Below are positions 7,547-15,209 of a stretch of DNA of 64,000 nucleotides, piece after piece. The stretch comes from a virus. Its lineage: Duplodnaviria; Caudoviricetes. The stretch lies in IMG/VR virus record IMGVR_UViG_3300030055_000003. One strand, 5' to 3'. Numbering within the stretch: position 1 is the stretch's first letter; the number at the start of each line of letters is the position of its first letter. The translations under genes were made by a program, and so were the position numbers. The notes under the pieces were generated by a model. That model did no database searches and was not told where the DNA came from. It saw only the letters and a list, made by a program, of their open reading frames with translations.

Positions 7547-7843
7547 TTATCTAATTAAATTTTGAAAATTATCATCTGTTACTAAATAGTATTCAGAAGT
7601 ATAAATAATTCCAGATCCTCTAGTTATACTTACTCTTAAATGATGTTCGTCATTTATATCAGCAACTTTTATTTTACAATTTTTAGGCTTATGTATTCCT
7701 TCCATAGTGCCTATAAATTCTCTTTTAGTAGAGTCATCATTATTTAATATGTATTCTTTAAATTCTTCCCAAGTTAAATCTGTTACTTTATACATAATAC
7801 TTTGAAAGTCTTCCTTGTTAATATTACTTTGAATTATATACAT
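7547..7843 (-). CDS. Hypothetical protein
   Basis: ORF with SD, co-oriented. Confidence 0.6.
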   Translation of the reverse strand: MYIIQSNINKEDFQSIMYKVTDLTWEEFKEYILNNDDSTKREFIGTMEGIHKPKNCKIKVADINDEHHLRVSITRGSGIIYTSEYYLVTDDNFQNLIR

Positions 7844-7919
7844 CTAATCACCTTCTTAATATTATTTTTAGTTCTATTAATTTGTTGACTTACATTAAAA
7901 TTATTCATTTATTGGCTTT

Positions 7920-9225
7920 TTGTGAACATTATATGAACACAATTCCAATTTATAAGTCCATAAGTTATAACTCTTTAACAAGTCATACTAACTCTTATTG
8001 GATGTAAATGTACACCCTCTATTTCATCTACTTTAAAAGCTTCTGAAAATACCTTTTTAATTATATTATAAGCTCCATTAACATCTGAATTAATTAGTTT
8101 GTTTGTATTAGATTTAAATAAACCTCTTACTACACGTCTGCTTTTATTATATGTATCTTTACCTATTACTTCATTATCTAAAAAACTACAACCACTCGTA
8201 TAACTTTCGTTATTAGTTATTACTTTAATTCCTATATTAGAACACTTATATGTAATCATTTTTATTAATTTATCATATGGAATTGATATAAAATTCTGAT
8301 TAGCTGATTTGAATAAACCACTTTCCTGTTTCCAAGTTTTATTCAAACCAATTACTATGATCGTAATATTTAATCCTTCCGCATAAGTAACTATAGATTT
8401 ACTAGCATTATGTAAATAATAATTTATTTTATTATCTCTATCTTGTTGTAATTTATCTAACTTATTGCTCCAGTCCTTTTTATGTCGTTTCTTTAAATCC
8501 GACTGTAATTTAGCTTTCTTCTTATTGTAATATTGATTTATAGATTTGATAACTTTACCATTTATAATGATAGGTTGTACACCTACATTATTAACGCATG
8601 TAGCTAGGTTATCTACTCCTAAATCAATCCCTAATATTCTGTTATTGAATTCTTTAGGCTCTTGAACTTCAATCTCATAAACTATTTCTAATATGTAAGT
8701 TGAACCTTTTGGAATAATTCTAGTTTGTAATAGTTTATTTTTAACATTGGTTTTAAATAAGTTATTCAGTCCTTTTAGTGGTATAAAAGCAAAGTATAAA
8801 TATCCATCATATAAATGGGTTTGCATATTAGTCATTATAAAAATATGTCTACCATTTTTCTTTTTATATCTAGGTAATTTTGGTTTTCCAAGATATTTGT
8901 TTGGATGTTTCCAATAATCTTTTACACTTACTAAGAATGACTTCCAATCTTTACAAAGCAATCTCAATGTCATTTGTGCTGAATTTGAACCTATATCTTT
9001 GAAAGCCTCAGTCTTATTAAGTTCCTTTGACAACTCCACATATTGTAATATTGGACTACCTCTTACAAATAATTGTCTTTGAGTATAATTCGCTAGATTG
9101 TAAATGTTCTTAGCTTTAAAACAATACTCATCAAACAATTTCCATGCTTTGTGGTTTTTATCTATTATATGTCTTTCGACTCTTTGAGTTTTAATGTTAT
9201 CACCTCCTTTCAATCTTGTGTCATT
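7920..9225 (-). mobile_element. Lone-tnpB (IS1341-like) element; ends not resolved
   Basis: tnpB without tnpA; about 55 nt of 3' non-coding sequence ending near TTCAC is the candidate right end / omegaRNA region. Confidence 0.45.
7975..9213 (-). CDS. tnpB: IS200/IS605-family RNA-guided endonuclease TnpB
   Basis: RuvC-I LGIDLGVDNLA, IVIGLNKTWKQE, NESYTS, RuvC-III INSDVNGAYNI. Confidence 0.9.
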   Translation of the reverse strand: MKGGDNIKTQRVERHIIDKNHKAWKLFDEYCFKAKNIYNLANYTQRQLFVRGSPILQYVELSKELNKTEAFKDIGSNSAQMTLRLLCKDWKSFLVSVKDYWKHPNKYLGKPKLPRYKKKNGRHIFIMTNMQTHLYDGYLYFAFIPLKGLNNLFKTNVKNKLLQTRIIPKGSTYILEIVYEIEVQEPKEFNNRILGIDLGVDNLATCVNNVGVQPIIINGKVIKSINQYYNKKKAKLQSDLKKRHKKDWSNKLDKLQQDRDNKINYYLHNASKSIVTYAEGLNITIIVIGLNKTWKQESGLFKSANQNFISIPYDKLIKMITYKCSNIGIKVITNNESYTSGCSFLDNEVIGKDTYNKSRRVVRGLFKSNTNKLINSDVNGAYNIIKKVFSEAFKVDEIEGVHLHPIRVSMTC

Positions 9226-9234
9226 TTTCTTTAA

Positions 9235-9546
9235 TTACTCTACTTTTACTTCAACCCAATCTTCGGCTAATGTATCAGCTTGACTAGCATTCCAAGGAAT
9301 AACTGTATTTCCTGCTGTCTTTAATAATAAGAAATTTTCAAGTTTATATGTAGTTTTACCTACTCCTACTTCAACAATTCCTTGTAATTCAGAAACATCA
9401 TATAACTCTTCTGTAAAATTCTCATCAGCTTTCATTTTTAATGTTGAGAAATAGAAACTAAATACATGCATTCCTTTTCCATTCCAACCTTCTCTAGCTA
9501 TTGGTTTACCTTGTTTAGTTAATTCTACTGCTTTTCCAAAATTCAT
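9235..9546 (-). CDS. tad2: DUF2829 protein, Tad2-like anti-Thoeris/CBASS signal sponge
   Basis: MNFGKAVE...AREGWNGKGM...PWNASQADTLAEDW, the DUF2829 signature. Confidence 0.75.
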   Translation of the reverse strand: MNFGKAVELTKQGKPIAREGWNGKGMHVFSFYFSTLKMKADENFTEELYDVSELQGIVEVGVGKTTYKLENFLLLKTAGNTVIPWNASQADTLAEDWVEVKVE

Positions 9547-9598
9547 AATTTATTTCTCCTTTTCTTCTATTAATTTATTTAAGCATTCTTAATTTGTT

Positions 9599-9745
9599 AA
9601 TATGCTTTAAAGAATAGCTGAATTTACCGTTTCAGCACATTCTCCGATTTAAGCAATTGGTACTAACTTAAAAATCTTGGGTATCAACCTTTGAGAGTTC
9701 TTCTTTCCCTATTGAGTAGTCATTAGCTACTCTTTAAAACATATT
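9599..9745 (-). ncRNA. Candidate structured RNA / leader 1
   Basis: 21-bp closing stem (9599-9619 with 9725-9745); both mismatches are G-U pairs on the minus strand; internal hairpins; downstream of a sigma-A promoter. Confidence 0.5.
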
Positions 9746-9823
9746 ATCCTGTTTATATTAATTTATTTCACTTAATCTTTTATGTATGTTGTGGTAAAGG
9801 TGTTATTCTCTACCACAACTGTT

Positions 9824-9852
9824 ATTTTACTCTCTTATTTATTACTTGTCAA
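9824..9852 (-). promoter_or_regulatory. Sigma-A promoter
   Basis: TTGACA-17-TAAAAT. Confidence 0.7.
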
Positions 9853-9870
9853 CTACTTCTATTAATTTAT

Positions 9871-10263
9871 TTAATTGTCTAATTCATCTATCATCTTTTG
9901 AATTTCTTCTGCTGACTTACCTTTTAAATCCTCATTCTTTTTTAAGTCTAAAGCTTCTAATAATTTTTGCTTTTGTTCTTTTTTAGCTTTAGCATCTTCT
10001 CTTGATTTGGATTCAGCTTGTTTTATTTTAACTATATGTTTTACAATTTCAATTTTCATATCTAATTCTTCATCTTTTTGTGTTTTAGTATCTAATAAGC
10101 TTTCTTCCTCCACTTGTTTTAGTTGTGAATTCAATCCTTTAAAAATTGTATCTAAATCTTTAACTGATAATGACCATAACTCTTCTACTGGTTGTTGTCC
10201 TCTAAAATCAAACCTAAATTTATTCCTACTAGCTACCTCAAAAACATTCTTTTCTGTGTTCAT
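9871..10263 (-). CDS. Conserved large-phage hypothetical protein, coiled-coil C-terminus
   Basis: FEVASRNKFRF..RG...VEELW pattern; partner of the 683-aa gene. Confidence 0.6.
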   Translation of the reverse strand: MNTEKNVFEVASRNKFRFDFRGQQPVEELWSLSVKDLDTIFKGLNSQLKQVEEESLLDTKTQKDEELDMKIEIVKHIVKIKQAESKSREDAKAKKEQKQKLLEALDLKKNEDLKGKSAEEIQKMIDELDN

Positions 10264-10298
10264 AATTAATCATTCTCCTTCTTATTTATTAATTTATT

Positions 10299-12350
10299 TT
10301 AAAATTTAATTTTTAGTATACGTTCTGTTTGTCCTATTGCTTTAACTACCAATTCATTTCTTTTAGTAGAACTAAATCCTAATCCTGATAGTTGGTCATC
10401 AACTTCTTTTACTGCCATCTTACTACCCAATGCTTCAAATACTCTTTTTTGTTTCATTAAGTCTTCTTTTAAGAACTCGTTATAGAATCCATTTGGCTTC
10501 TCTGAATTAACACAATCTTTCAACATAAAGAAGTAATGTCTATGACCAATTCCTTGTTGTTCATCCCAGTAATTAGGTGAATACATAACAACTCCTGTTG
10601 GTATAAATTGATTTGTTTTTAAATTCCATACTTCTTTTGAAGAAACACTTGATGGTAATAACTCTTTAATAGTAAAACCTGTTTCTCTATTAAAATTGAC
10701 TTCTGCAACCATTACATTTTCTTTATTTTTTAATTCTCTATTATAATCAAAAGAGTATATTTGTCCATCAAATTCTATTTCTGCTTTAAATCCTGTTCTT
10801 CCTCCTCTATTAGCATAGTTATGAACAAAGAATTTATATGTCCCTTCTTTCATCTTATTTTTATCAGTCCATGTTATATTTTCAACTGCTGGAATTCCAT
10901 GTTTTGGACTTTGAATATCTATATCTAATTCTCCAGTAGTATTCCTATTACAACTATTACTAAAATAAATTTCATTTCCATTTGGTTCATAACAATGAGC
11001 ATCTAAATCATTTCCATCATATTCTTCATCATTCCATTGAATAGAAAATCTTAATATACCATCTACATTACCACCTGCTGATTTAACTCTATCTTTCATA
11101 GAACTGTCTGTTATATTACCTGAATAAGCCCAACTAAAAGGATTGTTCCATTTAAACATTGTCTTAGCATCTTTATTCTCTGGTGCTATCAATGAAACCA
11201 TATTGCTAGAATGTTTATTCTCAAGATAAACTTCAAGTTCCTTTGTTGTAGGTAATACATTCTTTACAAAATCTTCTATTGCAATTTCTTCAACCTTTGA
11301 GAATTTCTTAGGATTAATAGGAATTGAACTTGACATTTCATCAAATATATTTGTATTTTGTATTCTCTTAGCTGAGTCCTTGTTTGAGAATAATATATTA
11401 TTTACAGAAATATCATCTAAAGTTCCATGTCTTCTTGGTAAAGAATCTAAGTAGCCTAAATCTTCTATTGTTTTCTTAGCATCTTCTAACATTTTTTTAG
11501 TAAAAATAGCCTTTGGACGTTTGTAGTTTTCAGGAGCAATTATCGCTTCATATTTTCTTACTGCCGTATCTAAATCCATTCCTTCACTTATATTTATAAG
11601 TAATGTTCCTATTGAATGGTTTTTAATTCTTCCAATTGAACCACCAACTTTTACTGATTGTTCCCAAGCATAAGTTTCTTTCTCTTCTTGTGTTTGTAAT
11701 TCATCATAAGCTTTCTTGTATTTAAGGAATTCATTTAAAACGCCTTTCCATTCTTCACCTTTGTATAATGTATTAGATGATATTAATTCTAATACTGTTA
11801 AAAGTGATTCTTCTGAAATTTCATCTAATGACCTTTTAAATACATTTCTTGTATCTCTATAAGTTCCTTTTAAATCACCTTCTGATCTACTACTTCTATC
11901 AACAAATTTATCTGGTAATTCTAAGTAGAAATGTTCATATTTATTTATTGAACCGTCTTCTAATAATTCTCTATTACTATCAGTACCAATATTCTTAAAT
12001 TTGCTAATATAAATATCTGTAATGGCTTTTGATTTAACATATTCAGATAATGCATTTGCCACTGGTTGGAAGGTTGTACTATTTGCATCAAAATCCCATA
12101 TTGTAGTTAGTTCATTATTTTTAATAATAACTGCATTTCCAATACTCTTAATGAATTGTCTACAACAACTACAATCATATTCTCTTCTTTGTCTGTAAAG
12201 TTCATTTGTACCTTCTGGAAAACTGTCTAAGTAAATATTCCATAATTCATCTTTATCTACGTTCACCTCAAATAAGCAATCTGCATCCTTTGTGATTTGT
12301 TTAAAGTTTTCTTGTAACACCTTTTTAAAATTTTTAAATTCCATTTTCAT
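10299..12350 (-). CDS. Conserved large-phage protein with C-terminal YfaP/DUF2135-like domain
   Basis: N-terminal YDCSCCRQF; C-terminal LRFSIQWN...DLDAHC.EP.G..IYF...GELDID...VENITW. Confidence 0.5.
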
Positions 12351-12409
12351 TCACTCCTTTATTTTATATGTATATTTTATTTTCCCTTTAATTTATTGAG
12401 CATTTATTT

Positions 12410-12511
12410 AATATGCTTTGCTGAGTAGGTTAACTGTTACATTAACACTACTTTTGAAAGGAGTTTTCTATGAAACTTTTGAGTAGTTTATTCTACTCAG
12501 CAAAACATATT
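12410..12511 (-). ncRNA. Candidate structured RNA / leader 2
   Basis: 19-bp closing stem (12410-12428 with 12493-12511), one G-U; same AATATGTTTT...AAAGCATATT ends as element 1. Confidence 0.5.
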
Positions 12512-12538
12512 CTATTAATTTATTCTTACCACTCTTTA

Positions 12539-12567
12539 ACTATATCACATACAATTTCATTTGTAAA
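12539..12567 (-). promoter_or_regulatory. Sigma-A promoter
   Basis: TTTACA-17-TATAGT with TG extension. Confidence 0.6.
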
Positions 12568-12755
12568 GTGTTTATTTCTATTAATTTGTTAAGTCTTGCT
12601 AAAACATACTTTTTATTGGCTTTTTCGACTTCTACATCCTAGTGTTTAAGCCATTCTTAAAATCTGTTAATTTGATAATTCTTAGTATTTTTATTAATTT
12701 ATTAACAATTATATTTTATGTAAGTGGTAAGTTTGTTATTCCTTACCACTTCTTC

Positions 12756-12785
12756 ATCTTATCATATTTACTAATTACTTGTCAA
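12756..12785 (-). promoter_or_regulatory. Sigma-A promoter
   Basis: TTGACA-18-TAAGAT with TGn extension. Confidence 0.6.
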
Positions 12786-12863
12786 TATAATTTTATTAAT
12801 TTATTGATAATTAAATGTTATACAGGCTACATATATTAAACATAGCCCCCATTTTATAATATA

Positions 12864-13166
12864 TTATTTATCTTCAACTTTTCTTAATTCTTTATCTAAT
12901 TGTAATTTAACTAAGTTAATTAACCATAATGTATTCCTATTATCTCCTCTATTTATATATCTTTGGTCTACTTCATCATTGATAATAATATTATAATATT
13001 TAATAAACTCTTCATGCAACCATAATTTTAATTCAAATTTACTACTGTGGTCATAACAAGAACTTTCAGTTATTGCACAATACAATTTATCAAGATAATT
13101 CGTATTGCTACTGTGTCTACAAAAACTATCTAATAAATCTAATCTCTTTTCATCGTTCATATTCAT
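12864..13166 (-). CDS. Hypothetical protein
   Basis: Co-oriented ORF, tightly packed. Confidence 0.55.
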   Translation of the reverse strand: MNMNDEKRLDLLDSFCRHSSNTNYLDKLYCAITESSCYDHSSKFELKLWLHEEFIKYYNIIINDEVDQRYINRGDNRNTLWLINLVKLQLDKELRKVEDK

Positions 13167-15106: not shown

Positions 15107-15209
15107 ACAAATTCCCTTTCCTTTCAAACTAATTTTATATTACTATTATACCATTAATTTGAAATTATATACACATTATTTAAATATATTTATATTAATT
15201 TATTTATAT

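Follow-up and report, generated by a model that had tools for sequence, protein, structure and literature searches.

A covarying leader RNA family in the promoter cassettes of SPbeta-like phages

The SP82 Bs-RNase III and T7 R sites are RNase III processing hairpins of phage early mRNAs, and a perfect duplex of 19–21 bp in an early leader is well suited to a double-strand-specific RNase. In the lambda N leader, anti-SD pairing masks the ribosome-binding site, which is opened by RNase III. PMC4838370 cites conserved RNase III sites in the early mRNA of the Bacillus phage SP82. Mobile regulatory cassettes have been described in T4-type phages as promoter-early stem-loops, or PeSLs (Arbiol et al. 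2010, PMC2839356); their stem-loops are terminators, they are present in many copies, and they undergo modular shuffling (PMC2839356).

Here we describe a leader RNA element that is present twice in the genome of an SPbeta-like phage. Like the SP82 and T7 sites, it is a conserved long stem repeated in early-transcript leaders or intergenic regions under the host RNA polymerase, and it lies inside the transcript, between a promoter and a gene (with the gene start 29–71 nt downstream in all 14 copies known). Those sites, too, occur in several copies per phage with shared sequence and structure, and the length of the stem found here would suit a double-strand-specific nuclease. In contrast to the simple or bulged hairpins of SP82 and T7, the stem is the closing helix of a three-way junction whose loop is variable; moreover, there is neither sequence similarity to those sites nor an Rfam match, and an RNase III site is here predicted from the sequence alone. 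The likeness to PeSLs concerns the surroundings of the element. [quoted passage not shown] Unlike in PeSLs, the stem lacks a U-run and is located downstream of the promoters within the leader, the cassette measures about 400 nt, and there are only one or two copies per genome. Finally, as in anti-SD leaders such as that of lambda N, subtypes a and b of the element have an upstream pyrimidine tract complementary to the SD sequence and start codon, which competes with a helix; in contrast to such leaders, the tract does not co-vary with the cognate start site and is absent from most family members. The family is best classed with the phage early-leader elements that control processing or translation, as a variant carried by a shuffled promoter cassette, its function being put forward as a proposal.

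The DNA analysed here (the window, 64,000 nucleotides) is the reverse complement of bases 39600–103599 of a virus record of 140,944 bp (25% G+C). About 220 of the 236 ORF-level genes of the record lie on one strand, the minus strand of the window, and we therefore read the element under study, copy 2, on the minus strand from 12511 to 12410; window coordinates below refer to this strand unless stated otherwise. Copy 2 is located inside a 513-nt gap between a 100-aa ORF (12864–13166) and a 683-aa ORF (10299–12350), the product of which is a DUF8224 protein (PF26675). The element precedes this ORF, as stated in the original prediction, and the distance between them is 59 nt. The gene bears the SD sequence GGAG (12354–12357) and two in-frame AUGs 6 nt apart (12348–12350 and 12342–12344). 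The second AUG has the normal 9-nt spacing to the SD and matches the MEFK start of homologues; therefore, the protein probably comprises 681 aa. In relatives, the neighbours include YorF, YorH, DnaB and AAA_24, which is consistent with an SPbeta-like phage.

A covarying leader RNA in 14 copies

Both copies were expected to share their termini and a local GAGUAG-loop-CUACUC hairpin, and both features were indeed found on the minus strand. Copy 2 (subtype a, 102 nt, 12410–12511), defined by its fold and a covariance model as a three-way junction, starts with AAUAUGUUUU (12511–12502) and ends with AAAGCAUAUU (12419–12410), with the local hairpin at 12498–12481. Copy 1 (subtype d, 147 nt, 9745–9599), which forms the leader of a Tad2-like gene, has the same ends and local hairpin and, as anticipated, a different interior. 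The distal CUACUC was confirmed in copy 2 (12428–12423), but copy 1 reads CUAUUC at the corresponding box. On the 3′ side, copy 2 is followed by the expected AAUGCU and a near-copy of the AAUAAAUUAA motif (12404–12386).

The shared terminal 10-mers form the base of a perfect 19-bp helix with one U·G wobble, which encloses 64 nt in copy 2; in copy 1 a 21-bp helix encloses 105 nt. The 10-bp stem base is identical in the two copies, and above it the differences are compensatory on both strands. The minimum free energy (MFE) of copy 2 calculated by RNAfold was −33.1 kcal/mol compared to −12.4 ± 2.7 for shuffled sequences (z = −7.6; 0 of 200 shuffles as good), and copy 1 gave z = −3.9. Among the 95 inverted repeats within 200 nt in the whole window, the two copies (I1 and I11) are the longest or best matched. 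The 10-mers by themselves are not enriched within the window; the signal is their pairing and the shared architecture, not 10-mer frequency.

Relatives were reached via the 683-aa DUF8224 protein and the pattern AATATGTTTT-N3-G-N2-TAG-N5-7-CTACTC, and a covariance model, R1, was built from six short copies. In this genome R1 finds exactly two copies, both in sense (113.7 bits for copy 2 and 34.2 bits for copy 1); two other large records yielded a single copy each, and three more distant records yielded none. Altogether, 14 distinct copies are present on at least nine contigs from related uncultured SPbeta-like phages, all of them AT-rich, phage-like and also carrying the gene-upstream motif of this phage. 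The original prediction had envisaged a small family with a conserved scaffold and a variable interior and had proposed a covariance-model search for further copies as the test by which this idea might fall. The pattern search and the model together yielded 12 further distinct copies in related phage contigs, with compensatory changes in the helices P1 and P3, so that the family stands.

Other searches delimit it. Rfam gave no match at the gathering score in the whole window and nothing relevant at E ≤ 5 in 7600–13000, and a search for tRNA and tmRNA found none. A first 16-base pattern of the 5′ end returned 38 matches in IMG/VR, all by chance and in coding DNA; gapped end-to-end patterns returned about 230, mostly by chance, with one true copy; a pattern scan of genome contigs returned three, none of them real. 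A weak R1 match in the genome G005 was rejected as an ordinary terminator palindrome. Taken together, the results define a family of leader RNAs that is real, covarying, previously undescribed and narrowly distributed.

In the consensus of the ten short copies, P1, P2 and P3 meet in a three-way junction. The P1 arms of copy 2 lie at 12493–12511 (5′ arm; its first 10 nt are invariant in 14/14 copies and its positions 11–16 covary) and 12410–12428 (3′ arm; it ends in 10 invariant nt and provides the G of the U·G wobble in all copies). Of the 19 pairs in the P1 consensus, ten at the start and three at the end are invariant; four of the six pairs in between covary (G-C/A-U, U-A/C-G, G-C/A-U and G-C/A-U), and inclusion of the long forms adds a fifth covarying pair, with five P1 sequence variants across the 14 copies. 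The length of P1 ranges from 19 to 21 bp in the family. P2, made of CUACU and AGUAG, shows no variation: the CUACUC box (12481–12486) is invariant in 14/14 copies, and the AGUAG box (12448–12452) provides the 3′ strand. P3 (12429–12447) is a variable 5-bp hairpin with compensatory changes in all five pairs across copies. In the alignment 98.6% of cells pair, nine pairs show changes on both sides, and 0 of 500 shuffles match this, while pairing falls to about 40% in a control where the partners were slid. The four long copies retain P1 and P3 and possess an extra internal hairpin.

All copies stand in the sense orientation 5′ of a start codon. The U·G wobble is fixed in 14/14 copies, and the opposite strand would have an A-C mismatch at this position; the antisense of copy 2 scores 45.5 bits with R1 compared to 113.7 bits in sense. 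The fixed wobble together with the strand-asymmetric scores argues for an RNA with the sense of the coding strand and against an antisense RNA or a DNA cruciform.

Several other candidate features of this stretch were rejected. A 40-codon ORF on the opposite strand (12470–12592, plus), with a strong RBS inside the element, was considered as a possible type I toxin, but it is reduced to 3 and 17 codons in relatives; because it is not conserved, and its "RBS plus ATG" merely mirrors the anti-SD/anti-AUG segment described below, it is not a gene. The mini-ORF starting from the AUG of the 5′ arm lacks an SD and is 2–22 codons long. A hammerhead or another ribozyme core was dismissed, as CUGAGUAG of copy 2 is not conserved in the other copies.

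The promoter cassette and the genes behind it

A conserved cassette of about 400 nt with two sigma-A-type promoters, which stands before at least eight unrelated genes, ends with the element as its 3′ module. Nine cassettes align over about 350–400 nt despite their different downstream genes; in this genome the cassette is found only at the two element loci (two in the 141-kb record). It starts with a motif, AAYAAATTAATAKAA, followed by the distal promoter (TTGACA, 17–18 nt, TAAGAT-like), a transcript-start hairpin and UACAUAAAA; then come the middle block ending in AGUAUGUUUU, the motif, the proximal promoter and the motif again; and finally the element, the short P4 hairpin, the motif and the SD. 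At copy 2, the proximal promoter, of the sigma-70/sigma-A type with 10/12 matches (TTTACA, 17 nt, TATAGT with TG; 12539–12567), ends about 28 nt 5′ of the element, and its predicted start lies about 20 nt upstream of it, in agreement with the promoter distance given originally; its hexamers are conserved in the nine aligned cassettes. The distal promoter (TTGACA, 18 nt, TAAGAT) is located at 12756–12785, with a hairpin at the start of its transcript (12724–12749) and a UACAU at 12718–12722.

At both distal promoters (12718–12749 and 9782–9819), the start hairpin GUGGUAAG/CUUACCAC is followed by UACAUAAAA, and this stem covaries in the relative contig L122. The UACAU, a MazF-type site, is found again at 12368–12372, about 11 nt 5′ of the SD of the 683-aa gene, where it is kept in four orthologous leaders and in L382. 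The middle block, of about 90 nt (12595–12690), is common to eight cassettes. It ends in AGUAUGUUUU (12601–12610), a near-copy of the 5′ arm of the element that could pair with the 3′ arm. The block may form a structured RNA of its own or offer the element another partner for pairing. A possible GGCUU/AAGCC stem was also noticed within it.

The 15-nt motif AAYAAATTAATAKAA has 121 occurrences with at most one mismatch on the coding strand of the 141-kb record, and in the window 61 were observed vs. about 20 expected. It is nearly always intergenic, usually 14–30 nt 5′ of a start codon or 7–9 nt before a −35 box (examples are 9568–9579, 10287–10298, 12513–12524 and 15193–15204). The example directly 5′ of copy 2 (12513–12524) is a copy of this roughly 100-fold gene-upstream motif, in the form AATAAATTAATA, and a near-copy lies 3′ of P4 (12386–12397). 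A −35-like partner of the motif was looked for and not found; an operator, an RNA signal and a recombination linker are candidates for its role. That the flanking motif might be a YonO-type phage promoter was rejected, since in SPbeta YonO relies on just one late promoter (PMC5467207).

The genes downstream of the 14 copies are unrelated: four encode DUF8224 proteins, one a Tad2-like protein, one TnpB, two Y04K-family proteins, and six small proteins without a clear family. In the stretch behind copy 1 (7975–9546), the Tad2-like gene is followed after 21 nt by a TnpB gene. In L122 (6654–8074; 96% identical), the same element stands directly before TnpB, without Tad2, and in L124 and L125 it precedes a Y04K-family gene. 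These arrangements, when compared to copy 1, indicate that the leader stays constant while the cargo genes behind it are swapped. On the upstream side of the DUF8224 cassette, L122 (422–3665) carries instead an RtcB RNA ligase, a 127-aa ORF and an RRXRR-HNH endonuclease, a gene replacement which is a further sign of module exchange at the cassette. Two further functions were rejected: a retron ncRNA, as there is no adjacent reverse transcriptase among these genes (DUF8224, Tad2-like, TnpB, Y04K and small unknowns), and processive antitermination of the put/nut type, as there are no downstream terminators to overcome.

The element itself can be present or absent at the same site, and this holds for both closer and more distant relatives. 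In L022 the promoter, hairpin and motif of copy 1 run straight into the gene without the element; compared to copy 1, the indel comprises the element and one copy of the motif and has motif repeats at its borders. In L001/L023, L002, L123 and the Clostridioides phage pCD1602_4, a short gap without the element precedes the DUF8224 gene. Such a pattern could be expected if the element acted as DNA, either as a MITE-like insert or as an inverted repeat for recombination or protein binding. The terminal inverted repeats of 19–21 bp, the flanking direct copies of the 12–15-bp motif, the presence/absence at the sites of copy 1 (lacking in L022) and copy 2 (lacking in L001, L002, L123 and pCD1602_4), and a TnpB nearby in two contigs all fit this explanation. 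However, the inner positions of the "terminal repeats" covary rather than being conserved, and the asymmetric T/C position, which gives U·G only on the sense strand, is fixed in 14/14 copies. The orientation and the distance to the gene start are fixed as well, with one or two copies per genome, whereas a MITE shows conserved terminal repeats, multiple copies and either orientation. Furthermore, the unit common to the loci is the whole cassette of about 400 nt, and most copies have no TnpB nearby. A DNA-level role is therefore highly unlikely.

Predicted alternative folds and possible masking of the ribosome-binding site

In copy 2 and four relatives, the P2 loop, or "cargo" (12453–12480 in copy 2), contains UUUCAU (12470–12475) and ACUCCUUUC (12456–12464), complementary to AUG(A/G)AA and AAAGGAGU of the start site, respectively. 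In copy 2 the loop can form 8 bp plus 6–9 bp with the SD and start of the 683-aa gene, and the duplex of loop and start site has −15.1 kcal/mol compared to −7.9 ± 2.2 for shuffles (3 of 1000 as good). This anti-SD/anti-AUG loop is restricted to the five copies of subtypes a and b and is absent from nine of the 14, including copy 1. The cognate pairing is no better than that with 220 other phage start sites (fractions 0.12–0.97), so the complementarity to the SD is of a generic kind. Among the five copies, the anti-SD nonamer does not vary, while its flanks do.

A loop of this kind might also work in trans, for instance at ribosome-binding sites, if the element were a free-standing small RNA, transcribed from the proximal promoter or cut from the leader. 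It has a promoter of its own 20 nt upstream and a stable closed stem with a variable exposed loop, which in subtypes a and b matches a generic SD plus AUG. It has no terminator, however, and no loop-specific antisense match was found elsewhere in the phage genome beyond the generic SD complementarity, so that a small RNA appears very improbable. The individual trans targets considered in the phage genome were discarded: they were generic SD matches, and two longer same-strand matches inside genes were due to chance.

In the leader itself, an alternative fold is predicted, comprising H1, H2/P3, P4 and the loop paired to the SD and AUG. P4 (12399–12417) is a hairpin formed by AAGCAU of the 3′ arm and the downstream AUGCUU; it excludes the base of P1, and the partner that it needs is kept in 13/14 copies. 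Thus, the base of the 3′ arm has two partners, the 5′ arm (in P1) or the downstream AUGCUU (in P4); for the top of the 5′ arm the choice is between the 3′ arm, giving P1, and CUACUC, giving H1; CUACUC itself can form P2 with AGUAG or bind the 5′ arm; and AGUAG can bind CUACUC or, in H2, the CUAC of the 3′ arm. RNA segments with two possible partners are invariant, whereas single-partner positions covary, a pattern that suggests an RNA using both pairing sets.

The calculated energies place the two folds close to each other in the subtype of copy 2. In copy 2, the fold without P1 lies only 2.8 kcal/mol above the MFE, and in copy 2 and the four relatives the alternative either lies within 2.8–6.6 kcal/mol of the P1 structure or has the MFE. 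The latter applies to four related copies and to the 418-nt transcript from the distal promoter. The predicted probability of P1 is 0.79 in copy 2, 0.52 in L124 and about 0 in three b-type copies, where P1 has a G·A mismatch; in the other nine copies it is 0.91–1.00, and their start sites are predicted to be open. The switch proposed originally is therefore upheld only partly: alternative pairings exist and the folds are close in the subtype of copy 2, but where the 5′ arm differs, the compensating change is found in the 3′ arm and not in the local CUACUC box, so that H1 is not kept by compensation, and nine of the 14 copies are predicted to adopt the long-stem form. In subtype c, H1 contains an A-C mismatch.

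These data bear on the idea of a nuclease-free translational riboregulator, in which the leader would toggle between the P1 form with an open ribosome site and a multi-hairpin form with the SD and AUG paired to the loop, depending on co-transcriptional folding, temperature, the promoter used or an RNA chaperone. It would account for the near-isoenergetic folds in subtypes a and b, for the boxes UAG, CUAC, GUAG and CUA, which permit an exchange between H1 plus H2 and P1 plus P2, and for the invariant anti-SD nonamer amid varying flanks in the five copies. Nevertheless, it fits only subtypes a and b, since nine of the 14 copies have no such loop and a P1 probability of about 1; moreover, the loop and its own start site do not co-vary, and H1 is broken in subtype c without compensation. 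As a general explanation, toggling by itself is rather unlikely.

The attenuator suggested in the original prediction found no support as far as transcription is concerned. Neither P1 nor P4 is followed by a U-run, and the stretch from the element to the gene contains no terminator site, which excludes attenuation of transcription at an intrinsic terminator.

Processing of the leader as the preferred explanation

The element probably controls the processing or translation of the downstream message. Our best explanation, still a tentative one, is a cis-acting leader whose long stem would serve as an RNase III-type processing site, complemented by a translational gate in the subtype of copy 2. 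The long stem is the property common to the whole family, and P1 with its uninterrupted 19 bp (copy 2) or 21 bp (copy 1) amounts to about two helical turns. Such a perfect helix of 19–21 bp may be a processing site for the double-strand-specific RNase III of the host. No RNase III or dsRBD domain is encoded in G000 or G001, the two phages searched, and any RNase III would therefore be that of the host. A cut in P1 would detach everything upstream, including the loop segment able to mask the ribosome site, and would give the message the same 5′ end irrespective of which promoter was used; the 3′ half of the stem, once released, would fold into P4, a small hairpin, at the 5′ end thus created. 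In the subtype of copy 2, the gate would add a second layer, such that only molecules reaching the P1 fold would be translated and processed.

Binding of a protein would explain the invariant stem base just as well. A phage or host RNA-binding protein other than RNase III might dock at the stem base and junction and co-regulate all the cassette genes. The base of 10 bp with its U·G, the UAG/CUA top and the CUACU/AGUAG helix are all invariant in the 14 copies next to covarying pairs, which is consistent with a docking site, and since the downstream genes are unrelated, any common factor, such as the single reader imagined in the original prediction, must act on the leader and not on the product. 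On the other hand, no candidate protein was identified, and the invariance is also explained by the two pairing partners of each invariant segment; we consider such docking decidedly unlikely.

A bolder version of the processing model combines it with strand exchange. Two hairpins would exchange strands through UAG, CUAC, GUAG and CUA to give the long and the inner stem, and only the long-stem form would expose the ribosome site, to be fixed in the ON state by an RNase III cut. Such a phage "expression gate" in a portable cassette would provide any gene placed behind it, e.g., the anti-defence Tad2, with an in-built delay at the post-transcriptional level or with protection from leaky expression in the lysogen. 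We regard this version as quite doubtful.

If leader processing with translational gating is correct, SPbeta-like phages carry a portable unit of promoter and folded leader which sets the processing and translation of early and accessory genes, an anti-Thoeris sponge and the TnpB nuclease among them, and which moves between genes by recombination. To our knowledge, only protein repressors and arbitrium signalling are known in the lysis–lysogeny control of this group, to which the unit would add an RNA layer; it would also be a compact natural part for RNA engineering. If the element is only an RNase III site, it would be a modern counterpart of the SP82 and T7 sites, of modest interest.

A possible reduced relative of the element, missed by the covariance model, was noticed outside the window at G000:C1:10970–11045, just 5′ of a gene. 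It consists of AGUAUGU, an 8-bp hairpin, AAGCAUAUU, the P4 partner AAUGCU and the motif, and it might represent a minimal version of the element or what is left of one.
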